Of a stretch of 64,000 bases of DNA, positions 7,082 to 28,564 are shown one piece after another; within the stretch, counting starts at the first letter, position 1, and each line of letters opens with the position of its first letter. The notes beneath the pieces are model-generated. The model was given only the letters and a program-made list of their open reading frames with translations, searched no databases and was not told where the DNA came from. This stretch comes from Acidobacteriota bacterium (GTDB lineage: Bacteria > Acidobacteriota > Thermoanaerobaculia > Multivoradales > UBA5704). A program made the position numbers and the translations under genes. The stretch lies in contig JBDTZG010000012.1 of assembly GCA_040005235.1 (NCBI GenBank), forward strand, positions 1 to 64,000. The letters are read 5' to 3'.

Positions 7082-8710
7082 ATGAGCGACGAGCCTGAGA
7101 AATCCGAGGAGCCGGCGCCCGATCTGGGCATCACTCCGCAGGACGTCTCGGGCGAGATCCGCGATTTCGTCAGCCGCCAGGAACGGCGGCGGCGCCTGGT
7201 TCCGCGCGCGGCGCTGGTCGGCCTGTGCGCCGGGCTGCTCGCGATCGCGTTTCGCCTGTCGATCGAGGGCGCCGAGCATCTCCGCGCGGCGCTCTACTCC
7301 GCCGCGCGGGCGCTGGGAGCTTGGGGCTATCCGCTGCCGCCGCTCGCCTGCGCTCTCGCCGCGGGACTCTCGCTGTACCTGGTCCGCCGCTTCGCGCCCG
7401 AGGCGGCCGGCAGCGGCATCCCTCATCTGAAAGCGGTGCTCCACCGCCTGCGCGGTTTGCGCTCGGCGCGGCTGGTGCCGATCAAGTTCGCGAGCGGTTT
7501 GCTGGCGATCGGCAGCGGGCTCGCGCTCGGGCGCGAGGGGCCGACGGTGCAGATGGGCGGCGCCTCCGGCCACCTGATCGGCGGCTGGCTGGGCGTCACG
7601 CCGCGCGAGCGCCAGGTGCTGATCGCGGCCGGCGCGGGCGCCGGGTTAGCCGCGGCGTTCAACGCACCGCTCGCGGGGGTGATCTTCGTACTCGAAGAGC
7701 TGCAAGGGGATTTCGCGCCGGGGGTGCTCACCTCGTCGTTCGTCGCCTCGCTCACCGCGGATCTCGTGTCGCGCCTGGCGCTCGGTCAGCTGCCGGTGTT
7801 CCATCTCGCGGCGGCCCCGGCGCCGCCGCTCGGCAGCCTGCCGGCGTTCCTCGCGCTCGGCGCTCTCGCGGGTCTTCTCGGCGTGCTGTTCAACCGTTCG
7901 CTGCTCGCGGGGCTGCGCGGCTTCGAGCGCCTCGCCGCCTGGCCCGTGGGCCTGCCGGCCGCGCTCGTGGGGCTGCTGATCGGAATCGTCGGCTGGTTTC
8001 TCCCCGGAGCGCTCGGCGGCGGTGTTTCGCTGCTCCAAGGCGCATTCGCCGGCCAGATCGCGATGGCGCCGCTGCTCGCCCTGCTCGCGCTGCGCTTCGG
8101 GATGACCATCCTCTCCTATGGCAGCGGCGTCGCAGGAGGGATCTTCGCCCCCTTGCTGGTGATCGGCGCGCTGCTCGGCCAAGCGGTGAGCTTGGCGGCC
8201 GGCCGCTGGGGCGCCTCGATCTCAAGCGCTCCGGGTTCCTCCTCGGCGTTTCCGGTGGTCGGCATGGCGGCCCTGTTCGCCGCGATCGTCCGCGCGCCGC
8301 TCACCGCGATCGTGCTGATCCTGGAGATGACCGCGAACTACTCGCTGATGCTGCCGCTGCTCGCCGCGACGTTCATCGCCTTCGGCCTGGCCGACCTGAT
8401 GGGCGACCGGCCGATCTATCAGGCGCTGCTCGAACGCGACACCCTGCGCGGCCAGGACGCGCCCGAGCTCGAAGGAACCCTCCTCTTCGAAAGGTCGATC
8501 CGGCCGGGCGCGCCGTTCGACGGCCGCCGCGTGGCCGATCTGCAGCTGCCCGCGGGCTGCCTGCTGATCACCGTCGAACGCGAAGGAAAAAGCGTGGTGC
8601 CCGATCGCGACACCGTTCTCAAAGCGGGCGACCGGATCACCGCGGTGGTGGCCCCCCGCGCGGCCGATGGCCACCGGCTGCTGGTCGAGGGAACCTCGCC
8701 GCACCCTTGA
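7082..8710 (+). CDS. clcA: ClC-family H+/Cl- exchange transporter with C-terminal TrkA-C (RCK_C) domain
   Basis: Canonical GSGIP, GREGP (gating Glu), GIFAP and PIY motifs; TrkA-C tail DLQLPAGCLLITVER...LKAGDRI. Confidence 0.92.
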   Translation: MSDEPEKSEEPAPDLGITPQDVSGEIRDFVSRQERRRRLVPRAALVGLCAGLLAIAFRLSIEGAEHLRAALYSAARALGAWGYPLPPLACALAAGLSLYLVRRFAPEAAGSGIPHLKAVLHRLRGLRSARLVPIKFASGLLAIGSGLALGREGPTVQMGGASGHLIGGWLGVTPRERQVLIAAGAGAGLAAAFNAPLAGVIFVLEELQGDFAPGVLTSSFVASLTADLVSRLALGQLPVFHLAAAPAPPLGSLPAFLALGALAGLLGVLFNRSLLAGLRGFERLAAWPVGLPAALVGLLIGIVGWFLPGALGGGVSLLQGAFAGQIAMAPLLALLALRFGMTILSYGSGVAGGIFAPLLVIGALLGQAVSLAAGRWGASISSAPGSSSAFPVVGMAALFAAIVRAPLTAIVLILEMTANYSLMLPLLAATFIAFGLADLMGDRPIYQALLERDTLRGQDAPELEGTLLFERSIRPGAPFDGRRVADLQLPAGCLLITVEREGKSVVPDRDTVLKAGDRITAVVAPRAADGHRLLVEGTSPHP

Positions 8711-12991: not shown

Positions 12992-13186
12992 GTGAAGCTC
13001 GCGGAGTTCGTTAAAACGGCGATCTTGGAGGCGCGCTGGGAAGCCGAGGAGCAGGCCACGGCAGAGGTGTACTCACGCCAGCCGGACAGTCCCAACACGA
13101 TTTTCGATCCGGCGGTTTGGGAGTCAGTCGCTCTGACCCTGACCGACTCCACTTTCGTTTCCGACGGCCCGCCGCAAAGGAAATGA
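12992..13186 (+). pseudogene. C-terminal fragment of an RHH/CopG-type antitoxin-like protein
   Basis: AEFVKTAILEARWEAEEQATAEVYSRQPD...FDPAVWE. DNA at 13002-13124 is clearly homologous to 18241-18363. Confidence 0.6.
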
Positions 13187-15612
13187 CCATGCTGAGCCAA
13201 TGGACCGCCGATCTCCGTCACGCCGCGCGCTCCTTGAGGCGCCGGCCCGGTTTCACTCTGATGGCGGTGGGCACGCTCGCCCTCGCGCTCGGCGCCAATG
13301 CCGGGATGTTCGGCGTCGTCAACACGGTGCTGGTCCATCCGCTCCCCTATTCTCAGCCCGACCGGCTGGTCTACATCGCTGGCACCGCGCCGGGCTCCGA
13401 CCTTCCCGAAGAATTCGGAGTGGGCCAGGAGTTCTATCTCCAATATCGCGAGCAGTCCCACCGCCTCAAGGACATCGCGATCTACAACTCGTTCACCTCG
13501 ACCTTGCGCATCACCGACCGGGTGGAGCGAATTCGGATGTCCGCGCCCACCAACTCGCTTTACTCGACGCTTGGCGCGCGTCCCGCGCTCGGCCGTCTGC
13601 CCATCGCCGCCGACGAGTCGCGGGTGGTGGTGATCAGCGATGAGCTGTGGCGCACCTGGTTCGGGGCCGACCCGAAGGTCGTCGGACGCACCTATGACAT
13701 CGCGGGAGAGAGGCGCGAGGTGGTCGGTGTGATGGGACCTGAATTCCGGTTTCCCAACGACGGCACCCTGCTGTGGATTTCCGGCGAGGTCCGTCCGGAG
13801 GAGATCACGCCCGGCAATTTCGGCGTCCGTCTGGTCGGGCGCATGGCGCCGGGAGCCACGCTCAAGACGGTGGCCGACGAGCTGACCACTCTCGCCCGCC
13901 GGCTGCCGGAGCGCTTCGGAGGCCCGGCGAGCTACGCAAAACTGATCCAACAACACCACGCGGTCGTGCGCCCGCTTCTGGATGAGATGCTCGGCTCCGC
14001 CGCGAAGTCCCTATGGGTGCTCTTGGCGGCGGTCGCCTTCGTGCTGCTGATCGCCTGCGCCAACATCACCAACCTGTTCATGGTGCGCGCCGAGGGGCGC
14101 CGCCGGGATCTCGCGATCCGGCGGGCGGTGGGCGCCTCCCGCCGGCAGCTGGTCCGCCTCCAATTGGCGGAATCCCTGATCGTGGCGACGGTTGCGGGCG
14201 GCTTGGCGATCCTGCTCGCCGCCGTCGCCCTTCCCCTCTTCCTGCGCGCGGCACCCGCCCGCATTCCGCGCCTCGACGAGGTCCACCTCGATGGCGCGAC
14301 GATCCTGTTTACCGCCGTTGCGGCTCTTCTGTCGGGGCTCGCGTGCGGCCTGATTCCGGCCCTTCGCGCCTCCATGGCTGGCGACCTCACTCCCCTGCGG
14401 GACGGCGGGCGCGGCGCCACCCCCGGACGACATTGGCTTCGCGATGGCCTGGTGGTGGGCCAGACCGCCCTCGCGCTCTTGCTGCTCATCGGCTCAGGAC
14501 TTCTGGTGCGGAGCTTCCAGGCGCTCCGCCAGGTGGACCCCGGCTACGACACCCGGGACGTCTTTACCTTTCAGTTCGCGCCCGAGCAGGAGCAACTGAA
14601 GGACGGCCCCTCGTGGGCGCGCTTTCACCTCGATTTCCTGAAGCGTCTGGCGGCGGTGCCGGGCGTCACGTCGGTGGGGCTGGTGGAAAACGTCCCGTTG
14701 AACGAGGGTACCGCCGACGATCGATTCCGCACCGAAGCGATGGCTTCCGATCCGGACGCGGGCATCCTTCTCAACTACACCTACACGGCCGGCGACTACT
14801 TCCGGACGATGGGGATCAAACTGCTCCAAGGCCGGCCGTTCGACACGGCGGACCAGCTCACGACGCCGGGCAACGTGGTCATCAGCCGCACCGCCGCCAA
14901 GCTGATGTGGCCCGGAACGAGCGCCATCGGCCGCCGGCTCCAAGCCCGGGACGCGACGACTTGGAACACCGTCGTGGGCGTCGTCGACGACGTAATGCAG
15001 GACGGTTTCCGCGACTCCCCGCAGGCTCTCGTCTACCTGCCGCTGGCGGGGCCGACGCCTACGAGCTGGGAGATCAGCTCGCCGGCCTACGTGCTCAAGA
15101 CCGCCCGGGCCGAGGTCATCACGCCGGAGATCCGCGAGCTGGTCCGCGAGGTGGCACCCGAGGCGCCGATGTACCGGGTCTACACCCTGGCGGGCCTGGC
15201 GGCGGACTCGATGGCGCAGCTGTCCTTCACCATGCTGACGCTCGGCGTCCTCTCCACCCTGGCCCTCCTCCTGGGCGCCATCGGGCTCTACGGCGTTCTC
15301 TCCTACGCGGTCGCCGAGCGGACGCGCGAGATCGGCGTGCGGCTGGCCTTGGGCGCCACCGTCGCCAACGTCCGGCGGATGGTCGTGGCGCAGGGCGCGC
15401 GGGTGGTGGGCCTGGGGCTCGTGCTGGGCCTCGTGGCCGCCCTCGCCTCGTCGCGGGTCGTAGCGAGCCTGCTCTTCGGCGTCGCCGCTTTCGACCCCGC
15501 AACCTTCGGCGGCATGTCCGCCCTGATGGCTGCAGTCGGCGTGCTCGCCTGTCTCCTCCCGGCGTTCCGGGCGTCGAGCGTCGACCCGATCGACTCGCTG
15601 CGCAACGGCTAG
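13183..15612 (+). CDS. ADOP-type duplicated ABC transporter permease (MacB_PCD/FtsX x2)
   Basis: DLRHAARSLRRRPGF, TLALALGAN, LLIACANITNL, GQTALALLLL and ERTREIGVRLALGA; no ATPase gene adjacent. Confidence 0.92.
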   Translation: MTMLSQWTADLRHAARSLRRRPGFTLMAVGTLALALGANAGMFGVVNTVLVHPLPYSQPDRLVYIAGTAPGSDLPEEFGVGQEFYLQYREQSHRLKDIAIYNSFTSTLRITDRVERIRMSAPTNSLYSTLGARPALGRLPIAADESRVVVISDELWRTWFGADPKVVGRTYDIAGERREVVGVMGPEFRFPNDGTLLWISGEVRPEEITPGNFGVRLVGRMAPGATLKTVADELTTLARRLPERFGGPASYAKLIQQHHAVVRPLLDEMLGSAAKSLWVLLAAVAFVLLIACANITNLFMVRAEGRRRDLAIRRAVGASRRQLVRLQLAESLIVATVAGGLAILLAAVALPLFLRAAPARIPRLDEVHLDGATILFTAVAALLSGLACGLIPALRASMAGDLTPLRDGGRGATPGRHWLRDGLVVGQTALALLLLIGSGLLVRSFQALRQVDPGYDTRDVFTFQFAPEQEQLKDGPSWARFHLDFLKRLAAVPGVTSVGLVENVPLNEGTADDRFRTEAMASDPDAGILLNYTYTAGDYFRTMGIKLLQGRPFDTADQLTTPGNVVISRTAAKLMWPGTSAIGRRLQARDATTWNTVVGVVDDVMQDGFRDSPQALVYLPLAGPTPTSWEISSPAYVLKTARAEVITPEIRELVREVAPEAPMYRVYTLAGLAADSMAQLSFTMLTLGVLSTLALLLGAIGLYGVLSYAVAERTREIGVRLALGATVANVRRMVVAQGARVVGLGLVLGLVAALASSRVVASLLFGVAAFDPATFGGMSALMAAVGVLACLLPAFRASSVDPIDSLRNG

Positions 15613-15709
15613 GGGACTTTGGCGGCGCCAGCCACCTGTCCCCAAGGGTGCCGGGCACATGCAACCGGCCCTTTCGGTTTGCGTACTAGGTATCCAAAAG
15701 GAGCCCATC

Positions 15710-17257
15710 ATGCCGAGCCGATCGCGCCTCGCCACTCTTCTTACGTCCTTCCTTCTTCTTATCCCTTGTCTGCTGGCCGCGCAGAGCGCCGGGGGCGGGG
15801 CCCAGGATTCGCCGGGGACTCCGCCGCCGCCGCCGCCCGCCTCCCCGAAAGAGTTCGTCACCCGCCACACCTTGGAGATCGGCGGCAAGATTCTGCACTA
15901 CCGGGCCGTCGCGGGCGAGACCCTTCTCAAGAGCGCCAAGGGAGTGCCGAAGGCGAGCGTCTTCAGTACCTCCTATCTGCTCGACGGGGTGGACGCTCCG
16001 TCCCAACGGCCTATTACATTCTTCTTCAACGGCGGGCCAGGCTCGACCGCGACTTGGCTCCACATCGGCGCCTTCGGCCCCGTCCGGCTCGATCTGGGAC
16101 CCGATCCTCTCGACGCCGGGAGCCCGCCGTACGCGCTGCGTCCCAATCAATACAGCCTTCTCGACGTCTCCGATCTGGTGTTCGTCGATCCCATCGGCAC
16201 GGGCTACAGCCACGCCCTGGGAGAGGGCAAGGACAGCGATTATTGGGGTGTCGACGAGGACTCCGCCTCAATGGCCGCCTTCATCCGCGCCTACCTGACC
16301 CAAGAGCGCCGCTGGAGCTCCCCGAAGTACTTGGCCGGCGAGAGCTACGGCACCACTCGCGCCAGCCTGCTGGTGCGGGATCTGTCGCTGGCCCTACTGG
16401 ACGGCGTCGCGTTCAACGGGGTGATCCTGCTCTCCACGGCGCTCGACGTGCGAATCTTCCTCTCCGGCGCGCAGGGCAACGACCTTGCCTACGCGACCTG
16501 TTTGCCGACCTATGCAGCCACCGCCTATTACCACGACCAGCTTCCGGAGAAGCCGGCCAACTTCGAGGCTTTCCTCGCCGAAGCGCGCGAGTTCGCCGCC
16601 ACCGAGTACCTGACGGCGCTCTTCCGGGGTGACGCCCTCTCCGAGACGGAGACCGCGGCAGTCGCCGCCAAGCTCCACCGGTTCACCGGCCTCTCCGAGG
16701 CCTACTTGCGCCGCAGCCATCTACGCGTGTCGGTGGATCATTTCCTCAAGGAGCTGCTGCGCGATCGCGGCGAGGTCCTGGGCGTGCACGACACGCGCTT
16801 CCGCGGCAAGGACCCCGACGAGGCCGGCGAGCTCGTCGCCTGGGATCCCTTCATGTACGGCATCGCCAGTCCCTTCGTCACGGCCATCAACGGCTATCTC
16901 ACCGACGACCTGAAGGTGGAAATGGGGGAACGTTACGAGGTCTTCTCCACGCAGGCGAACGGCGCCTGGAAGCGCCCCGCCGACCAACAGAGGGCATTCT
17001 CAGGCTTTCTCTACACCACCGACTACCTGGCTCAAGCGGCAGCCACCAACCGGGACTTCCGCATCTTCGTGGCGGGCGGCTACTACGATCTCACGACCAC
17101 CTTCTACGGCGTCGAACATACCTTCAACCACAGCGGCATCCCCAAGGATCGCATCACCCTCAAGAACTACGAGGGCGGCCACATGATGTATCTCCGCGAG
17201 GCCTCACTGGCGGCGCTCTCGGCGGATATTCGGGCGTTTATTCGGGGGGGGGGGTAG
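15710..17257 (+). CDS. Secreted serine carboxypeptidase, family S10
   Basis: Signal peptide; FNGGPGS, DPIGTGYS, GESYG (catalytic Ser), GYYDL and GHMMY (catalytic His). Confidence 0.92.
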   Translation: MPSRSRLATLLTSFLLLIPCLLAAQSAGGGAQDSPGTPPPPPPASPKEFVTRHTLEIGGKILHYRAVAGETLLKSAKGVPKASVFSTSYLLDGVDAPSQRPITFFFNGGPGSTATWLHIGAFGPVRLDLGPDPLDAGSPPYALRPNQYSLLDVSDLVFVDPIGTGYSHALGEGKDSDYWGVDEDSASMAAFIRAYLTQERRWSSPKYLAGESYGTTRASLLVRDLSLALLDGVAFNGVILLSTALDVRIFLSGAQGNDLAYATCLPTYAATAYYHDQLPEKPANFEAFLAEAREFAATEYLTALFRGDALSETETAAVAAKLHRFTGLSEAYLRRSHLRVSVDHFLKELLRDRGEVLGVHDTRFRGKDPDEAGELVAWDPFMYGIASPFVTAINGYLTDDLKVEMGERYEVFSTQANGAWKRPADQQRAFSGFLYTTDYLAQAAATNRDFRIFVAGGYYDLTTTFYGVEHTFNHSGIPKDRITLKNYEGGHMMYLREASLAALSADIRAFIRGGG

Positions 17258-17865: not shown

Positions 17866-18093
17866 ATGTCGCGCAAGCTCACTACGACCGTCCGGGTGGA
17901 CCCCGAGAACGCCGAAGCTCTCGCCAAGGCCCGTGAGGCTGGATTGTCGGCATCCGATCTCCTCCGAAAGGGTCTGCGTATCGCGGCTTCAAGTTATTAC
18001 GAGAATCGACGGGCACCCTCAACGGACCTCTTCGTATCTACGGACCCGAAGCTGGGTGAAGAATCAGAGTTGTTCAGGAGCCTCGAGCGGTGA
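17866..18093 (+). CDS. RHH/VapB-like antitoxin
   Basis: 75 aa; TTVRVD...LSASDLLRKGL RHH-like pattern; GTGA overlap with the downstream PIN stub. TATAGT lies 7 bp upstream of the ATG (possibly leaderless). Confidence 0.6.
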   Translation: MSRKLTTTVRVDPENAEALAKAREAGLSASDLLRKGLRIAASSYYENRRAPSTDLFVSTDPKLGEESELFRSLER

Positions 18094-18404
18094 AGGAAGG
18101 GCTGGTCGCTGACACCGGCGGCCTGCTGCGAGCCCTCGCTGCGCAGTTCTCCGCTGTTCGTGTCGGCCCGCACTACAAGCAAGCACTCGACCTGGCAGGA
18201 CGTTTGGAGCAAATTGCTCCTGCTCGGTCGCGTCGTCGGTCGGAGTTCGTTCTAACGGCGATCTTGAAGGCGCTCTGGGAAGCGGAAGAGCAAGCCACGG
18301 CGGAAGCGTACGCGCGCCAGCCGGATAGGTCCGAAACGGCGTTCGATCCGGCGGCATGGGAGTATCGCGACCCAGGCAAGCGAATGAGGCAGTACGAGAT
18401 CTAG
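18090..18404 (+). pseudogene. Chimeric remnant: PIN/VapC N-terminal stub fused to an RHH antitoxin body
   Basis: Begins LVADTGGLLRAL (first PIN strand with Asp), then switches to RLEQIAPARSRRRSEFVLTAILKALW...AYARQPD. Confidence 0.55.
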
Positions 18405-19266: not shown

Positions 19267-19534
19267 GATACGCGCGAAATGCTGCCGAAACGGGGCTCAG
19301 TAATGACGCAGCGCTTCCGAATGCGAGTTTCCGCCCGAACCCGGTCGCCGATCGAATCCGCGGGCCCTCGCCGACCTTTAGCGTGGCAAGCAGCGAGTCC
19401 CTGATCCTATTCTTCGGGGAATGACTGGGGGCTCGCCGCGAGATGCTTCTGTTCAGGCTATACTTCAAAAGAGTAGCCGCTGCTCCGCGCTTTGTCACTG
19501 CGTCGGAAGTCCAGATCACGATCGGAAGGTCTCC

Positions 19535-22498
19535 ATGCTCTCGCCCCCCCTGCTCGGCCGTCTCCTCCTTGCCGTCCTACCATCCCTGGCGCTCGGAGAT
19601 CTTCCCGTCCGGGCGCAAGGCCCCGGACCCAGCATCGTCCAAGTCTCCGGCCGTCAGCTCGTCGTTCGGAAGCGCAACCCCGACGGTACCCTCGGCGCCG
19701 CGGCGCCATACACCATGCGAGGCGTCGTCTGGTCGCCGGCCAGTAAGACGACGAACACCTCGCCCCACGATCCGAACGGCGCCGTGGTCCGCCGGCCGGA
19801 GCTGGCCCTCTGGGCGGCAACGGATATCCCGCTGATGGCAGGCATGAACGCGAATACGGTCCGGATGTTTCTCGATCCCGGCGTCGGGAGCCAAGGTGCC
19901 GCTGGCCGGGCTGTGCTCGATCGGCTCTACGCCCGCGGCCTCATGGTCGTCTTGACCGTCGACGACACGGTCGACGACACCGCGCGCATCTCCTCGGCCG
20001 TGAACCTTTACAAAGATCACCCCGCGGTTCTCCTCTGGATGATCGGCAACGAGTGGAACATCAACAGGTTTTACGGCGAGGCGAGCTCCGTCCTGAACGC
20101 CGCACAGCGGGCCGAGGCGGCGGCCACGCTGATCAAGTCGCTCGACTCGCACCATCCGGTCGCAACGAGCTACGGTGAGATCGACATCAACTCAGATGGT
20201 CTTCGCCTCGCTGATACGAGCCACTACGTCAATGATGTCGCTCCGAGCGTGGACGTTTGGAGCCTGAACGTCTACCGTTCGTCGAGCTTTGGCAGCCTGT
20301 TCGCGGAGTGGGCGTCGATCAGCACGAAGCCGATGTTCCTCGGCGAGTTCGGGACCGACGCCTACGCCTCGACCTGCGCCCGGACGAATCCACCCACGGG
20401 AGCGATCGACGAGAGGACGCAGCGGCGGTGGGATCTCTCTCTCTGGAACGAGATCGCGTCCCACCTCTCCGCGAACGATCCGGCCCAGGTGGCGCTCGGA
20501 GGCACGGTCTTCGCGCTCAGCGACGAATGGTGGAAGGTATCGCCTGCGGGAGCGCAGCAGACCGGTGGCTTCCTCTTCGTCAACGGTCATCCCGACGATT
20601 TTGCGAACGAGGAGTACTGGGGCCTCACCGACATCGACCGAATCCCGCGCGAGGCCTACTATGGGATGCGGCTCGCCTTCGCTGCCGGATCGTCCGAGGT
20701 GCCGCCCTTCCGGGTCGATTTCTTCACCATGCCCGCCGCGGTCACGACTAATCTTCCTGCGTTCCTGATCGCCGGGACGGTGCAGAAGGGAAGCCGCGCT
20801 TTCCTCAACGGCAGCGAGATCCCGGTCGATGGCGGCGGAACCTTCGCCGTTCGCTTTCCGGTCTCGATCGCTCAGATCCTCGCGGTAGGTCCAAACGCGG
20901 TCACGCTCCGCATCGTTGGGCCTGACGCGAGCGAAACGACGACCATAAAAACGATCGATTTCGAGCCCACCTTCTCGACCGGCGGCGAACGGCTCCTCTA
21001 CGTCGACTCGGTGGCGCCGGGCGTCTCCGGAACCGTGGTGCTCGATCTGGATACGGGAACCATTCTCGGCCTTCTCGACCAGCAGCATGTCAGAGGCGTC
21101 GCCGCGGACGGTAGCGCGGTCTATATGGACACCCGCGGCGTGATCGATACGGCTACGCACGCCGCCGCGGGCGCTTCGCTCCCGTTCACCTCCCCAATCC
21201 CCGTCGACGGCTTCCTCGTCAGTCCGCTCGGAGACTTCCTCTACTCCCGCAATGAAATCGTCGACCGTGCGGCGAACACCCTTTCCGCGTCGCACCTTCC
21301 CGCGAACCTCGTAAGCGGTAACACCTTCGGAGGAGCGACGGTCCCCGGGGGACCGGCGATCACTCCCGACGGCCAATTCCTCTTCGCCGGCACGAGCGGC
21401 AACCTCATCCGGATCGACAGGCCGTCGCTCACCTCGATGTCCATCAACCCGTCGTTCGGCGGCGCTTTCTTGAGCGACTACACCGTATCGCCGGACGGCG
21501 GGACGCTGGCTCGTACGACCTACGGCGGCGCGGTCCCGCAGGTGCAGTTCTATGATTCCGGAAGCCTTGCCTTGACGGGAACCGGACTCGGACCTGGGGA
21601 TTTCGCGAGCGAGGTGGTCTTCTCTTCTGCGAGCCAGTGCGCGATCGTCGGCAGCGCGGGGAACCCGGCAAACCGCGGCGGTAACCTCACCGCTATAGAG
21701 ATCCCGGGCTTTGGGCAGGGCGCCTGCTCCCTCATAGACCTCGCCGACAACCTTGTGATCTCGGGCGGCGACCAGATCTACGTCACCTCCGGAACGCGTT
21801 TCGGGATTGACGTCTACGACCTCGAACCCTGTGGAGCATTGAAGCGGCGGCGCACCTACTTCCTCGGGATCAATCAGTTCGTGCTCTCGACGGGAAGCCC
21901 GAAGAACGACGACATCAAGCGCATCGTCTTGCGCGACCTGCCGACTCTCAACGTGGAGACGGCCGGCACCGGCGGAGGAACCGTTGCAAGCTCGCCCACC
22001 GGCATCAACTGCGGAGCCGACTGCTCGGAGGGTTACAGCTTCGGAACCCAGGTGACCCTCACCGCCACCCCGACGACAGGATCCCACTTCGCCGGGTGGG
22101 CCGGCGACGGCTCTTGTGCCGGAACCGGTGCCTGCACAGTGGTGCTCGATACGGATCGCTCCGCGACGGCAACCTTCAACGTCAACGTCATTCCACCCGC
22201 GGCCCCCACAGAGCTCCGCGTCGATCGCATCCCGGGGAGACCTACTCAGCTCAAACTGGTGTGGCATGACAATTCCAGCAACGAATCCGGGTTCAAGGTC
22301 GAGCGCAAGCGGAAGTGCTGCGGTACGTGGACGGTACTGCCTAATGCACCGGCCAACTCCACCAGTACAGCCACCTACCGAAGCATCGGTCTGCGGTGCG
22401 GCGGAACCAGATACGCCTACCGTGTCTCGGCTTTCAACGCGGGGGGAGTGTCTGCAAGGTCCAACGAGGCAGAACGAGCGACACTTCCCTGCAATTAA
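19535..22498 (+). CDS. Secreted multidomain clan GH-A glycoside hydrolase (GH2-like barrel, Ig-like, beta-propeller, InlB B-repeat-like, FN3)
   Basis: Signal peptide; WMIGNEW (acid/base) and FLGEFG (nucleophile); SPDG propeller repeats; GTVASSPTGINCG...VTLTATP...FAGW; WHDNSSNESGFKVER...YRVSAFN. Confidence 0.8.
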   Translation: MLSPPLLGRLLLAVLPSLALGDLPVRAQGPGPSIVQVSGRQLVVRKRNPDGTLGAAAPYTMRGVVWSPASKTTNTSPHDPNGAVVRRPELALWAATDIPLMAGMNANTVRMFLDPGVGSQGAAGRAVLDRLYARGLMVVLTVDDTVDDTARISSAVNLYKDHPAVLLWMIGNEWNINRFYGEASSVLNAAQRAEAAATLIKSLDSHHPVATSYGEIDINSDGLRLADTSHYVNDVAPSVDVWSLNVYRSSSFGSLFAEWASISTKPMFLGEFGTDAYASTCARTNPPTGAIDERTQRRWDLSLWNEIASHLSANDPAQVALGGTVFALSDEWWKVSPAGAQQTGGFLFVNGHPDDFANEEYWGLTDIDRIPREAYYGMRLAFAAGSSEVPPFRVDFFTMPAAVTTNLPAFLIAGTVQKGSRAFLNGSEIPVDGGGTFAVRFPVSIAQILAVGPNAVTLRIVGPDASETTTIKTIDFEPTFSTGGERLLYVDSVAPGVSGTVVLDLDTGTILGLLDQQHVRGVAADGSAVYMDTRGVIDTATHAAAGASLPFTSPIPVDGFLVSPLGDFLYSRNEIVDRAANTLSASHLPANLVSGNTFGGATVPGGPAITPDGQFLFAGTSGNLIRIDRPSLTSMSINPSFGGAFLSDYTVSPDGGTLARTTYGGAVPQVQFYDSGSLALTGTGLGPGDFASEVVFSSASQCAIVGSAGNPANRGGNLTAIEIPGFGQGACSLIDLADNLVISGGDQIYVTSGTRFGIDVYDLEPCGALKRRRTYFLGINQFVLSTGSPKNDDIKRIVLRDLPTLNVETAGTGGGTVASSPTGINCGADCSEGYSFGTQVTLTATPTTGSHFAGWAGDGSCAGTGACTVVLDTDRSATATFNVNVIPPAAPTELRVDRIPGRPTQLKLVWHDNSSNESGFKVERKRKCCGTWTVLPNAPANSTSTATYRSIGLRCGGTRYAYRVSAFNAGGVSARSNEAERATLPCN

Positions 22499-22611
22499 GC
22501 CCGAGCGAGCGCCGGAGGCCCTCGCTCACCGACTCATACGAAGCTCTCGCCGGCCGCCGAGGTCGCCGCGCTCGGGGCGCGCCCTCGCCGCGGACTCTGG
22601 GGCCGACATCC

Positions 22612-23046
22612 CGGCACCGGTGCGCTTTTATCCAGCACTGCTGCTTCCCGAGCCGACACCGCCGCACTTTCGTCCGGCAACGTTGCGCTTTCATCCGGCA
22701 ACGCCGCGCCGCGATCCAGAACACCTGCGTTCCGGTTCAAGCTGGCTGAGCTCCGATGCAACACGCCTGAAACTTTTTCGGGCCTTGCTGAACTTTTTGT
22801 GCGCACTGCTGGATTTCTCGCACAAGTGGATGGAGATTTCTTCAACCAGGTTTTATCCGGGCTTTACCGGGAAAAGCTTGAGCATGGCTGAAGTTTTCTC
22901 CAGCCTGGCTGAACTTTCTTGAGCGTGGCTGGATTTTTCTTCGGCGTGGTTGAACTTTTCTCTAGCGTGGTTGCGCTGTTCGCACAGATGGCTGAACTTT
23001 TTGTGCGGAGGGCACAGTTTTTTTCGTGGCTGGCTGCGCTGGGATG
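22612..23046. repeat. Degenerate 21-bp tandem array, copy A (21 units)
   Basis: Parsed by hand: 19 units of 21 nt, one of 16 nt and one of 20 nt; consensus near CAGCRTGGCTGAACTTTTCTC. Homologous to 26127-26587. Confidence 0.85.
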
Positions 23047-23265
23047 ATGTTCAGGAGCCTCGAGGTTGTTGAGCCGCACCAGACAGGGCAATCGCTAACT
23101 CTTGTCGATGTGACAGCGCGGCTTGGAAGCCCCCTGGTGACTGCTTCGAGGCCTGACGGCCATACGATTTGGTCCTACACCTACACACCAAGCGGCGGCT
23201 TCGGTTGGGAAAAACGGCTCCTTACTTTCGACTCGCGGGGATCCTTGTGGACGTCTTGCATTTAG
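23047..23265 (+). pseudogene. Possible SmpA/OmlA (BamE)-like domain fragment
   Basis: T..DV.ARLGSP.....DG..IWSY.Y...LTFDSRG pattern; lacks a signal peptide; starts immediately after repeat copy A. Confidence 0.4.
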
Positions 23266-23339
23266 ACGAGCCCTAGTTCCAGGCTCGCAGAGGCGAGCTG
23301 GTGCAGCCAGCAGGCCCCAGCAACCGGAACGAGGAACCG

Positions 23340-23837
23340 TTGAAGCGTTATGCGACGTTGATGCTCTTAGCAGGCCTGCTCGCGGGATGTGGAACTGCTG
23401 GCAGGAGCCGCGGTCCTTTACCGGTGACGGCAGCTCCAACTCCGAGCCAGTCCAATGTCGGCCTCAGCCGCGAGACCGCGATCGAGGTCTGCGAGCCGGC
23501 GGGCGAAAAGGCCTACCTTGCCCGGCTGTGTTGCCCTGATGGAGCCGTTCCCACTTATGAACGGTCCGGGAGCGTCGGATTGCGAAATGCGGTTGACACG
23601 AAATCCGAGGAAGAGCTGGCACGGCAACAGATGTTGGAAGAAAGACCCATTGCTCCAGGTGAAGCTGACTACCATGTCGTCGATCTCTATGACGTGATTT
23701 GCTCGGATAAGGAGTACGGGATTTTCCTGGACATGTACCACTGCGGGCAACCGGAACCCAAGGCCGCACCAGCAGATTTCTCGATCGCCGGGCGCAACGC
23801 AGCTTGGCGGCGAGGCGGCTTCCTATCCTACTTTTGA
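23340..23837 (+). CDS. Hypothetical lipoprotein
   Basis: GAGGA RBS and TTG start; MKRYATLMLLAGLLAGC lipobox; GEKAYLARLCCPDG...R.GS and FLDMYHC motifs. Confidence 0.7.
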   Translation: MKRYATLMLLAGLLAGCGTAGRSRGPLPVTAAPTPSQSNVGLSRETAIEVCEPAGEKAYLARLCCPDGAVPTYERSGSVGLRNAVDTKSEEELARQQMLEERPIAPGEADYHVVDLYDVICSDKEYGIFLDMYHCGQPEPKAAPADFSIAGRNAAWRRGGFLSYF

Positions 23838-23981
23838 AATCGACGTGCCATCTTCGGTCGCGAACTATTGCGCCTTGGCCGTTGGTGTTGCGCCTGGATC
23901 CGTCGGCAATGGATTTCTAGGAGACGTCGCAGGAGCCCTGTCACTCGGCTCGGTGTCTCCAGGAGACTCTTTCACAACGGT

Positions 23982-24500
23982 TTACTCCGTGCCCACAATA
24001 ACGAGGTTTTGTTTCGTGTTTATCGTCTGCATACGTTGCACGAGATCGGACATGTCGACGCCTGTCCGCTGAGGCAATAGATCGTAAGCAAGGTTCTCCA
24101 TGTCCGAGGCGGCGATTCGATTCGCCTGCCACTTGCGGGCAAAATCGCCGCTTGTGGTAAGAGTGATCAGAAGCGCTGCTAGCGTTGCCAGGATGGCGGG
24201 GAGATCCTTTTGAAGTCGCGGATGCGCGGCCAGGATTTCGAGTTTGAGTAGAAGGGCCGACAATGCGCTGAAAGCCGCAGCTCCAAACAAGCAGCCGAAG
24301 TAGACCGCGCTCCAGCGAATGGAGTTCCCTCTGTATCGGTGGTAGTTGTCCACCACGACTTGGGCCAGGTCGTGTTTGTTCTTGGTAACTAGACACGGAA
24401 CTCTATCGATGGCGCTTGTATCGTGCCAGTTGCTCTGGAGTATCACTAAACCGATCACGAAAACGAGGACAACCACTGCTATCCAGTGACCCTTTTTCAT
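23982..24500 (-). CDS. SLATT/DUF4231-like membrane protein with an extra N-terminal TM helix
   Basis: Two TM helices followed by DFARKWQANRIAASDMENL (W..xR..A..LE SLATT-like helix); visibly lower GC than the flanks. Confidence 0.6.
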   Translation of the reverse strand: MKKGHWIAVVVLVFVIGLVILQSNWHDTSAIDRVPCLVTKNKHDLAQVVVDNYHRYRGNSIRWSAVYFGCLFGAAAFSALSALLLKLEILAAHPRLQKDLPAILATLAALLITLTTSGDFARKWQANRIAASDMENLAYDLLPQRTGVDMSDLVQRMQTINTKQNLVIVGTE

Positions 24501-25035
24501 TGTAAGTTTGTCGGCGCTTCGGTTTGAGGAAGCAGGAATCTCCCTCCAGCCCTAGGATCTTGGGACGAGCACCCCCCCCTTCTCTCACCGTTTAGACGGA
24601 CGACTGAGCCGAATTCCTAACCGGGCTTGTGCGCTTATCGGCGTCGCGGCCATGGTCCGGCGATCTTCGGCGGATGTCCGCTTTGATAGCCGGGGTTGGC
24701 CTGTTCGCCTGCTCCCTACCCGCGCAACGGGCTTCGAGCGTCAATCCGGTCGAATCGCTGCGCAACGGTTAGCGACGACCGAGCGAAGTCGAGCACGGCG
24801 GCCTTCGAGCCGCCAACGCGCTCGTTCGCGCATTGGAATGGACCGTCGTGGCCAGCCTACGCCGACGCTCTCATTTTGCCCCGACCGCCCCATTTACTCG
24901 ATTTCTCGGAAACCGCTCTCTATCGTTGCGGCGTGGCGCTGATCTCGCCTCGTCGCGCAGCCGGGCCGTGCCCCAGCGGCGCATCCGGCCGAGGAACCAC
25001 CCTCTACCTCATGACGGCTTCGCTCTGCCGCAAGC

Positions 25036-25384
25036 TCAGGCTGCCGGCAACAAACGGTCCCAGGCCTCTCGGGCATCTCTAACCGTTCTGGCAAGATCCT
25101 GGATCCGGATGAACCCATAGTGATCCATGGCCCATGAACGAAGCTCGCGCGAGCTCAGCACGTAGGATTCCGCGGTGGGCGGGGAATCGGACCTGTTCTT
25201 CCCGAACCTGACGAACACGATGAAGTGGCCATTTTCGGCCGTGAAGTCATGCATCGGCCAAGACTTGGAATTGGCTGCCGCTTTCACGTCCACCGTGACG
25301 GCTTCGCCGGGCTTGCGAACGATCGTGATGTCGCCGTCATTTTCGGCGCCGACCGAAACCGTTGCGGCGGGAGGTTCTTTCCTC
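25036..25384 (-). pseudogene. N-terminally truncated PD-(D/E)XK-like nuclease
   Basis: The open frame upstream of the listed ORF reads GDITIVRKPGEAVTVDVKA...SWPM...FIVFVRF...YVL...EAWDRL. No start codon lies before the putative catalytic Asp. Confidence 0.5.
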
Positions 25385-26068
25385 CTATACCGAGAACCGT
25401 CGACGGAGCGTCAGTCCTCCGACCGCAGCGAGCAAAGCCGCGAGACCTGCCAAGCCCCATTCCGACAGGGTGGGGACCTCAATGACCGAGGGTACCGGCG
25501 CCGTCAGTGTCAGGTCGTCGAGGTTGAGGATCGGGGAGCAAGGCTCGCCGATCGAGCAGCCGGCTGGCAGGATCGCGAAGCGGGCGATCGGCTCGGTGGT
25601 CGAAACGCTCAGCGTACCCAGGAAGAAGAACGATCCGGGGCTCGGATGTTCGAGCGTGTCGGAGGCGAGAATGGCGCCTTTCGCATCGAGGGCGTAGAGG
25701 GTTGCCGTCCAGAGGGAGTAGGAGGTGGTCGAAATCCCGGCCACCGGGCGGGTGAATGTGGCGTCGGGCGGCGTTGAGGTGATGTAGTGATTGGTGACCG
25801 GAGCACCGGGAAACAGGGGGATCGTACCGAGCGTCCCGCTCGAGAAGGTCATTCCGAAGCTCGAGAACTCGTTGCTCAACGGGCCGCAGATGCCGCCGGG
25901 GCAGGGCGGCGCGGGGATGTCGTCGGCGGTTCCGAAGGCTCCGTCCGGACCCGGGAAGTTCTCGAAATCGACGAGGACGGATTGCGCCCCGGCGGGTCGG
26001 GCGAGAACTGAGGCGAGAAGCAGGCTGGCAAATACGACGGAGACTCGCTTCTCGATGTGCGTCTTCAC
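25385..26068 (-). CDS. Secreted protein with IPTL-CTERM sorting signal
   Basis: Signal peptide; C-terminal EVPTLSEWGLAGLAALLAAVGGLTLRRR. Confidence 0.85.
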   Translation of the reverse strand: MKTHIEKRVSVVFASLLLASVLARPAGAQSVLVDFENFPGPDGAFGTADDIPAPPCPGGICGPLSNEFSSFGMTFSSGTLGTIPLFPGAPVTNHYITSTPPDATFTRPVAGISTTSYSLWTATLYALDAKGAILASDTLEHPSPGSFFFLGTLSVSTTEPIARFAILPAGCSIGEPCSPILNLDDLTLTAPVPSVIEVPTLSEWGLAGLAALLAAVGGLTLRRRFSV

Positions 26069-26126
26069 GGTCGGACCTCCGAATCGGATTTCATGTCATG
26101 GTAGCGCGTTCCGTGGTCCACCGGGC

Positions 26127-26587
26127 CAGCACCGCTGCTTTCCAAATCAGCACCGCTGTGCTTTTATCCAGCATTCCTTCTGCCCGAGCCAGCAAGGCTG
26201 CGCTTTTGTCCAGCAAGGCTGCACCGTAATCCATCCCACCTGCGTGCCGGTTCAAGTTGGCTGAGCTCTGACGCAACACCCCTGAACCTTTTTCGGGCCT
26301 CGCTGGACTTTTTGTGGGCATCCTTGGCCGTTTGTGCGCACTGCTGGGTTTCTCGCACAAGTGGATGGAGATTTCTCCAACGTGGCCCGGTTTTATCCGG
26401 GCTTTACCCAGAAACAATTGAGCATGGCTGAGGTCTTCTCCAGCATGGCTGGATATTTCTTCAGCGTGGCTGCGCTCTTCTTCAGCGGGGTTGAACTTTT
26501 CTCGAGCGTGGCTGCGCTGTTCGCACGGTTGGCTGAACTTTTTGTGCGGAGGGCTCGGTTTTTCTCGCGGCTGGCTGCCCTGGGAAT
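26127..26587. repeat. Degenerate 21-bp tandem array, copy B (22 units)
   Basis: 21 units of 21 nt and one of 20 nt; aligns unit by unit with copy A in direct orientation. Confidence 0.85.
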
Positions 26588-26827
26588 GAGAATCGCCGGA
26601 CGCCCTCTACGGGCTTCTTCGTCGTGCGGCCCGCACTACCCAAAAAACACTCGGCCTGATTCCCCTGGGTGCTACCCCCCGCGTGCTTTTCGTGGCGCAG
26701 GCTCCCAACCTCGCCCAATCTGGCGCCCTCCCTTCCTCCCGTGACAGACTCGCCGCCGACCGTTTTCGGCTGGCAAATAACCGGGGCTTTTAAGCTATCG
26801 CTTGCCCCAAGAGTCGGAGGACCCACC

Positions 26828-28564
<1,737 letters not shown>

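Follow-up and report, generated by a model that had tools for sequence, protein, structure and literature searches.

Among the closest described systems, plasmid iterons have units of 19–22 bp, and centromere arrays are exemplified by sopC of the F plasmid with its 12 x 43-bp units; 21 bp itself corresponds to two turns of B-DNA. The ToxI-type units of type III toxin-antitoxin systems are about 34–45 nt long, near-identical and placed ahead of a ToxN-type nuclease. Repetitive extragenic palindromes (REPs) and bacterial interspersed mosaic elements (BIMEs) carry a GTAG or CGTC tag at one end, and short REPs can be tandemly reiterated, according to Di Nocera et al. 2013 (PMC3733652). We analysed a 64,000-nt stretch, hereafter the window, comprising positions 1 to 64,000 of contig JBDTZG010000012.1 (C122:1-64000) in the 6.2-Mb, 140-contig assembly of an Acidobacteriota bacterium (GCA_040005235.1, genome G000). 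The window contains two arrays, A and B, which are best explained as two old copies of a discrete module of about 450 bp, built from 21-bp units and with its direct repeats spaced at whole helical turns, as in iterons. We read this module, with a probability of roughly 0.4, as a phased scaffold at the DNA level, bent and/or bound by protein, which moves about within accessory islands.

Anatomy of the module and its copies

Copy A (22612..23046) and copy B (26121..26589) are direct, not inverted, repeats, both with the T-rich strand on the + strand. Tandem Repeats Finder detected 21- and 42-nt periods within both. A repeat search of the window linked them by five collinear blocks (76–88% identity, spacing 3499–3540 nt), and BLAST over the whole genome aligned them at 77% identity (E 1e-105). 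The self-identity at lag 21 was 0.52 in A and 0.52 in B, compared with 0.26 (standard deviation 0.02) for other lags and shuffled sequences and 0.28 for a control taken from the cargo between the copies, and neighbouring units were only about 50% alike in both arrays. The two periodic direct arrays reported at this place in an earlier note on the same DNA were thus recovered, and iterative segmentation divided A into 21 units and B into 22 unit slots, in accordance with the counts in that note. The alignment of A to B contained gaps of 20+1 nt, equal to one whole unit, of 5 nt and of 1 nt, in line with the previous statements that the copies differ partly by whole units and carry indels of 1–5 nt. 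The TAA noted earlier in the heptad frame (LEKSSAT) sits within the central GGATAAAACC.

The assembly of this region was checked against metagenome contigs from two sequencing runs, X1 and X2, which are a possible source of the assembled DNA and not independent support. A 27,792-nt contig from X1 spanned 21500-27500 and a 5,235-nt contig from X2 spanned 21943-27177, both with 0 differences, and a gross misjoin of A, cargo and B is ruled out. No contig joint linking A to B directly was found over the region, a result that is uninformative either way, as contigs drop rare variants.

Both copies consist of two sub-arrays around a unique centre, all read on the + strand. In A, segmentation placed a left sub-array of 11 units of the type CAGCAnnGCTGCGCTTTTATC at 22612..22842, with every step equal to 21 nt. 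The right sub-array, at 22880..23046, holds eight units resembling CAGCGTGGCTGAACTTTTCTC and includes one 20-nt step. According to the copy alignment, the centre between them (22843..22879) is 5 nt shorter than that of the other copies, and it holds a small hairpin, CCAGGTTTTATCCGGG, with one mismatch (22846-22861). In B, the left sub-array comprises 12 units with one 20-nt step (26127..26377, segmentation), the centre (26378..26419, copy comparison) contains the hairpin GCCCGGTTTTATCCGGGC at 26385-26402, and the right sub-array has eight units (26420..26587, Tandem Repeats Finder and segmentation).

Four full copies of the module are known, each in a different neighbourhood: A, B, a copy in a same-genus genome (G003; L009 10413-10882), which is 92% identical to B by BLAST, and M1, located on a metagenome contig of 1,223 nt (L101 236-737). 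The layout is common to all four, with a left sub-array of about 11–12 units resembling CAGCAnnGCTGCGCTTTTATC, a unique centre of 40–60 nt with the sequence GTGCGCACTGCTGGGTTTCTCGCACAAGTGG...GGAGATTTCTCC...GCCCGGTTTTATCCGGGCTTTACC, and a right sub-array of CAGCGTGGCTGAACTTTTCTC-like units, eight in number except in M1, which has one fewer. The mean column identity over the centre and the right half was 88%. Each unit is formed by an 11-nt core (consensus CAGC-N3-GCTG, GGCT(G) being the most constrained) and a T-rich 10-nt spacer, the consensus unit reading CAGCATGGCTGAACTTTTCTC. In its information profile, which has no 3-nt rhythm, a block stands out with GC at positions 3-4 and GGCTG at 7-11, accompanied by a T-tract of moderate strength.

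The differences between the copies were mostly substitutions and whole units. The indels amounted to three of 21 nt, together with 1 nt in B (a deletion relative to the G003 copy) and 1, 5 and 1 nt in A; as whole units, M1 has one more on the left and one fewer on the right, and A has lost one. In the G003 copy every step is exactly 21 nt, and M1 departs from it by whole 21-nt units only. The phase of the T-tracts (three or more T) was expressed as a coherence R, computed at a helical repeat of 10.5 bp. It reached 0.79 in B, 0.84 in the G003 copy and 0.92 in M1, compared with about 0.31 (standard deviation 0.17) in shuffled sequences. Copy A had an R of 0.15, not above shuffles, because its 5-nt deletion displaces the two halves by half a turn. 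Having lost one unit, further nucleotides (5 nt and 1 nt) and the helical phase of its T-tracts, A is probably a decaying copy.

The core was conserved in preference to the rest of the unit. Over the four copies, unit positions 8-11 were invariant in 56 of 68 columns, compared with 189 of 287 elsewhere (Fisher p=0.008), and of the 36 differences that separate B from the G003 copy, only 6 fell within the 8 core positions. The total divergence of these two copies was 7.8%, and that of third codon positions in the flanking genes was 12.7–16%.

A third copy in the window's own genome was not found by BLAST, nor did an nhmmer profile built from three copies yield a significant one. When BLAST was run over 60 relatives, the module was present in G003 only, and a 19-mer search of genome contigs returned the G003 contig only, plus 9 chance matches in unrelated taxa. 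The same search of metagenome contigs gave 1 true match of 11. There were 0 matches to viral contigs (24-mer) and none to plasmids (blastn), and the central 31-mer, with up to 3 mismatches allowed, was found in 0 of 400 other sampled genomes of the class, G003 not being in the sample. In total, G003 carries one full copy, one short relative and a 30-nt scrap, and elsewhere the module is represented by the one metagenome contig and two database open reading frames (ORFs) derived from further copies. The short, distant relative in G003 (L010 ~8214-8655) comprises 24 units, among which one step measures 22 nt. The first nine of them have a flipped core (CAGCCACGCTG), with the T-tract on the unchanged strand.

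Coding potential of the arrays

The module is non-coding and is neither a gene nor a gene relic. The minus strand can be read as heptads, and a decayed coiled-coil gene family was among the origins previously suggested for the arrays. In favour of such a relic, 21 nt equals seven codons and the arrays contain long open frames; the latter follow from the consensus unit itself, which is free of stops in five of its six frames. The substitutions did not follow codon phase. Sorted by position modulo three, they numbered 13/11/12 between the G003 copy and B, 28/31/27 between B and A and 24/28/26 between the G003 copy and A, compared with 14/1/69 for the neighbouring permease gene and 23/22/111 for a second real gene in the same two genomes. 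No frame had an excess of synonymous changes: in every one of the six they made up 13–32% of the differing codons, whereas the permease frame had 69 of 80. Codon log-odds, trained on long native ORFs, were negative in all six frames of both arrays, and the correct frames of the flanking genes scored +0.21 and +0.45. The G003 copy is spanned from end to end by a single open frame (180 codons from stop to stop), which lacks ATG, GTG and TTG in its first ~80 codons. Searched against 1.84 billion representative sequences, this frame had two matches, one being a distant array copy with the layout kept and the other an unrelated GKFSQAV repeat protein. The + strand contains another ORF of 136–137 aa, and its two matches among 5.8 billion proteins were the window's own ORF and the translation of another array copy. 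Intact relatives were absent from both of these very large libraries, and frameshifting indels of 1 and 5 nt separate the copies, including close ones. The coiled-coil origin was therefore rejected; it is very improbable and refuted as far as sequence tells. For annotation, this means that the long stop-free frames in such arrays, already called proteins by public gene callers, are not genes.

Neighbourhoods of the module and the wider array population

The cargo between A and B comprises five features of mixed orientation. A 178-aa ORF with a lipobox-like LLAGC, read by eye, and no family match lies at 23301..23837 (+), followed by a 172-aa SLATT-like membrane protein at 23982..24500 (-; NCBIfam SLATT_1 E 2.2e-8, 34 bits, below the 41-bit cut-off). 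Next is a dead, 47-codon C-terminal scrap of an ADOP-family permease gene (24629..24772, +), which corresponds to positions 772-802 of 803 in TIGR03434 (E 5e-6) and whose DNA matches, in relatives, the end of the gene at 13117-15612; the earlier description of the cargo as partly broken is borne out by this fragment. The remaining two are an 85-aa ORF without family match (25036..25293, -) and a 227-aa secreted protein with an IPTL-CTERM sorting signal (25385..26068, -; Pfam PF18203 E 1.7e-7, TIGR04174 E 7e-9). Domain searches identified the left neighbour of the whole block as a GH2-like glycoside hydrolase (19421..22498, +) and the right neighbour as an amino-acid permease (26828..28564, +). 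No transposase or integrase was detected between or beside A and B by the domain searches, and transfer RNA genes, which can act as integration sites, were likewise missing from the window, L009 and L010. The flanks of B, of the G003 copy and of M1 showed neither inverted ends nor a target duplication, and no empty site was found for comparison. A scan for promoters and terminators gave 1 promoter-like and 7 terminator-like sites, with no excess over shuffles.

The ends of the module bear scars of other genes. An intact small ribbon-helix-helix (RHH)-like gene is located at 17866..18093 (+; Pfam NikA-like, E 5.8e-4, below cut-off), and its 3' tail recurs beside both A and the G003 copy: a 16-nt scrap, GTTCAGGAGCCTCGAG, read from the sequences and identical to the tail, follows A at 23049..23064 (+), and the right end of the G003 copy adjoins a longer stretch of such a tail, the final ~55 nt. 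BLAST aligned window 18032-18139 to L009 10901-11008 at 90.7%. The syntenic permease locus in G003 retains a 30-nt remnant from the left end of the module, fused to the terminal ~60 nt of the peptidase gene. Module homology ends sharply in four different neighbourhoods. All four full copies have a gene 80–260 nt downstream on the T-rich strand, encoding a lipoprotein-like ORF, the permease, a decayed PIN-like ORF (no Pfam match) and a membrane protein. The G003 copy lies in an island between a RecQ-like gene and a cyclic-nucleotide/PilZ gene, which also holds genes for DUF488, a STAND-like ATPase and a TIR protein; this island is syntenic with contig C30 of G000, which has no array. As a side observation, the intact RHH-like gene of the window is followed by an ORF that overlaps it by 4 nt and begins like a PIN toxin (LVADTGG, no Pfam match), and the similarity of this ORF to its G003 counterpart is lost past ~16 codons. 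Judging from these sequences, a broken toxin-antitoxin pair probably occupies 17866-18404.

The interval upstream of the permease differed in all three closest relatives (G001, G002 and G003), and homology to them resumes at window 26705-26719. In G001, a peptidase S10 gene directly adjoins the permease, head to head, with a 230-nt gap. G002 has other small genes at this place, without an array of the module family, and in G003 the place is taken by a Phd/PIN pair together with another kind of array, whose period is 20/40 nt. The peptidase S10 gene of the window (15659-17257) is inverted relative to that of G001 (L025 13002-14522), and ~9.5 kb of variable DNA separates peptidase and permease here. 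At the position of copy B, the G003 array (L024, G003:C1, flipped coordinates 13984-14305) is unrelated, has a 20/40/61-nt period (unit GTCCCAGGATCGGATCAGCG) and lies ~350 nt upstream of the orthologous permease. The searches of the whole genome and of relatives and the synteny comparison proposed in the earlier note have thus given two copies in G000, a full copy and a short relative in G003, and a variable interval. Its proposal of a dispersed repeat family stands as far as the few copies in different, highly variable neighbourhoods are concerned; a joint capture of cargo by the A and B pair was not shown, its support being circumstantial. None of the outcomes that it had set against its own account (a lack of further copies together with an invariant interval, intact ORFs with third-position bias, or a misassembly) was observed.

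The A/B module belongs to a much larger and apparently undescribed population of intergenic arrays with a 20/21-base period in this lineage. Tandem Repeats Finder returned 215 rows of period 21 for the whole genome, together with many of 20, 40-42, 63 and 84. The arrays were assigned to genes or intergenic gaps by our own crude codon log-odds gene calls (4,770 genes, 87% coding). Among 156 intergenic arrays of at least 60 nt, 126 had periods of 20, 21, 40, 41, 42, 60, 62, 63 or 84. Within genes, periods of 21, 42 and 63 accounted for 20 of 59 arrays, and nearly all of the remainder had other multiples of three. Just one of 116 merged arrays of these intergenic periods was flanked on both sides by one open coding-like frame; some arrays at contig ends (TTELAQ type) had fair coding scores and were possibly misjudged. 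The 20/21-class arrays represent many unrelated sequence families (e.g., C56:136217-136526, C10:25044-25444, C118:19383-19559 and C85:2284-2578). A palindromic core is not general among them, as 18 of 90 unit consensuses had an inverted repeat longer than shuffles; one array has a 20-nt unit around the perfect palindrome GGATAGCGGCTATCC and another a 41-nt unit around TGATTTTGG-G-CCAAAATCA. The gaps with arrays were convergent, tandem and divergent in the numbers 31/46/18, compared with 139/351/206 for all gaps of at least 300 nt (hand-computed chi-square ~11, 2 degrees of freedom). A use of the arrays as island markers was not supported: the codon-usage foreignness of the flanking genes had a median of 0.281 versus 0.260 beside other long gaps (p=0.07).

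The periods were also surveyed in 400 kb from each of three other genomes. In G003, 11 of 15 arrays fell into the 20/21-nt period class, and 5 of 10 sampled G003 arrays were kept at the orthologous place in G000. In G014, from the same family, 10 of 38 arrays were in the class, the rest being mostly repeats of the CRISPR type and multiples-of-three periods. The sampled 400 kb of this genome includes several CRISPR arrays with the repeat GTCGCAATCCCTCCGTGCTGATCAGGTCGTTTCC (L029-L030, ~1,078,500-1,093,400). In G043, from another family, the class comprised 2 of 10 arrays, one of which reads as a plausible, unchecked coding heptad.

Several array families of the window's own genome were recorded in addition. 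Eight contig ends stop inside one 21-nt family with a unit of about CCAGACCACCACTGAGCTGGC and TTELAQ heptads (C4:1-331, C78:1-191, C79:1-133, C124:4-139, C127:1-239, C137:4066-4180, C59:71688-71868 and C98:54215-54403). Assembly probably breaks at these arrays, whose true length may far exceed what is visible. Some of them are positioned immediately upstream of real genes and share their reading frame (HXXEE-like membrane protein), and a different 21-nt array on C107 is likewise found upstream of a tadA-like gene. Five arrays share the unit GTGGCTTCAGCGAATTTCTCG (EKFAEAT; C54:24119-24270, C35:2888-3018, C24:13013-13155, C74:3040-3224 and C7:49414-49535), which resembles the unit of the module (EKFSHAx, frame and strand alike), without being linked to it by the nhmmer profile. 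The C54 array lies 260 nt upstream of a VapB-like/PIN pair, and the C35 array lies between a YafQ-type pair and a Y1-transposase-like gene (the whole gene matches Y1_Tnp, a 50-aa piece has no Pfam match). A dispersed repeat of ~120 nt, with copies 74–83% alike, was found at L009 6380-6517 and at ~13 places in G000 (C99:40249-40363, C114:181-314 and C106:5594-5709 among them), one copy lying beside a Y1_Tnp (IS200-like) gene (C114:444-782).

Explanations weighed and comparison with known systems

Of the origins suggested in the earlier note, a phased protein-binding or curved array is the best supported, the register being exact in two copies, the T-tract phase kept in three of four and the core conserved. 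Under the scaffold reading, the retained 21-bp register would place all cores and T-tracts on one face of the helix. Such an alignment would give the stretch an intrinsic bend and/or line up about 20 sites in equal phase, and these sites could be bound cooperatively by a sequence-specific protein. The module would be carried within accessory islands rich in toxin-antitoxin and defence genes, and both the protein binding or bending of the array and any effect on the neighbouring genes are inferred. Several observations weigh against this reading. A cognate DNA-binding, Rep or Par gene was absent beside every copy in domain searches of the neighbours, and no binding protein was found. The T-tract positions showed no extra conservation (43 of 67 invariant versus 202 of 288 for the rest), the core dyad CAGC-N3-GCTG exists in the consensus only (complementary pairs 214 of 352 versus a shuffle mean of 213, without compensation), and copy A persists although its phase is broken. 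The rule of a co-oriented downstream gene has n=4, with only 4–5 copies in existence, and the L010 relative, which lies between a GIY-YIG gene and a HicBA pair, is oriented oppositely to the latter. The register may persist merely through units born by duplication and through the rarity of indels, and the preference for convergent gaps (31 of 95 versus 139 of 696) fits tolerated insertions as well as it fits function.

One alternative we regard as a serious, if doubtful, possibility: a selfish or neutral intergenic minisatellite, comparable to REP/BIME clusters and generated by slippage or unequal exchange, with the 21-nt register as a by-product of its origin. The tandem reiteration of short REPs described in PMC3733652 offers a precedent, and such an origin accounts for the whole-unit indels and the gap preference equally well as a scaffold does. 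The common period class of many unrelated intergenic families, the enrichment of arrays in convergent gaps with depletion in divergent ones, and the retention in place of half of the sampled G003 arrays also speak for it. It is harder to reconcile with units that are old and about 50% alike, yet in exact register in two copies, with the preferential conservation of the core and with a divergence between B and the G003 copy below that of third codon positions. The consensus unit lacks a GTAG or CGTC tag, 0 of the 11 Y1-transposase matches in the genome lie on the window's contig, and the quantisation of periods to 20/21 over unrelated sequences would need a cause of its own. An element acting as RNA, either a long 5' leader of the downstream gene on the T-rich strand or a repeat RNA from one strand that acts as a sponge for an RNA-binding protein or, in the manner of type III antitoxins, inactivates a toxin, is unlikely. 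The position of all four full copies shortly upstream of a co-oriented gene would agree with it, as would the toxin-antitoxin neighbours in G003 and at similar-unit arrays in G000 and the ability of the centre to form small hairpins. RNA or cruciform structure is, however, unsupported, because the dyad is uncompensated, the fold z-scores of B are weak and not persuasive (only -1.7 on the + strand and -2.2 on the - strand) and Rfam is empty, with no match at E<=1 over 22000-27200 and none at gathering score on the window, L009 or L010. There was no strand asymmetry of the kind left by G-U pairs (24 G-T versus 18 A-C mismatches), the divergence of the units is far too great for processing into a unit RNA, and the downstream genes do not encode a ToxN-type nuclease. 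Distinctly improbable is a composite mobile unit or recombination platform, in which the 3.1-kb cargo would be moved or swapped through recombination, homologous or site-specific, at the direct repeats A and B. It would explain the variable interval upstream of the permease, the scars at the module ends (RHH-gene tails, and the 30-nt scrap with its peptidase tail) and the dead ADOP fragment within the cargo. Against this, the G003 copy is single, and M1 likewise shows one copy on a contig of only 1,223 nt; A and B, 77% alike with short identical runs, are a poor homologous substrate; and neither a transposase or integrase, nor inverted ends or target duplications, nor more foreign codon usage in array-flanking genes was seen.

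A broader form of the scaffold reading, which we put forward as a speculation and consider rather unlikely, is that the lineage (class Thermoanaerobaculia) carries an undescribed class of intergenic arrays. Such arrays would number more than 100 per genome, belong to many families and have unit lengths quantised to two turns of the helix (20/21 bp and multiples). The A/B module would be a conserved composite member, with GGCTG cores read by a DNA-binding protein and a bent nucleoprotein scaffold that insulates or tunes accessory genes. As far as searched, the composite layout, the phase-locking and the lineage-wide 20/21-bp rule are apparently undescribed: a non-exhaustive search of the full-text literature did not find a description of 20/21-bp quantised arrays in Acidobacteria. 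If the phase-locking is functional, the arrays would represent a new architectural or regulatory type of DNA in a poorly studied soil phylum, and they could serve to trace the protein by which they are read. The quantisation of the periods is a testable regularity in its own right, present in one genome of the same genus and one of the same family and hardly in a genome of another family.

The kind of element, a tandem intergenic repeat, is already known, and the module matches no curated RNA or protein family, plasmid or phage element. A CRISPR array was rejected, as the units abut head to tail without unique spacers. The module shares with type III toxin-antitoxin loci a tandem direct repeat just upstream of a co-oriented gene and a toxin-antitoxin-rich setting; it differs from ToxI in its 21-nt units, which are ~50% alike, and in the lack of a following ToxN/AbiQ-type endoribonuclease. 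With REPs and BIMEs it has in common that it is extragenic, repeated, partly palindromic and tandemly reiterated, and the genome-wide arrays favour 3' gene ends as REPs do. Unlike these elements, it carries no GTAG/CGTC tag, shows a 4-bp dyad in the consensus only, uncompensated, is low-copy (2 in 6.2 Mb) and has no adjacent Y1 transposase (RAYT, REP-associated tyrosine transposase). Compared with iteron and centromere arrays, the module has no Rep, ParB or ParR nearby, is chromosomal with no plasmid or phage match, and comprises ~20 diverged units, split into two sub-arrays by a unique centre, where those arrays have a few near-identical units. It resembles them in its head-to-tail units, its spacing at whole helical turns, its short, partly symmetric core and an arrangement that would align proteins on one face of the DNA. 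By analogy, the spacing logic of the module would be that of the iteron and centromere-array type.

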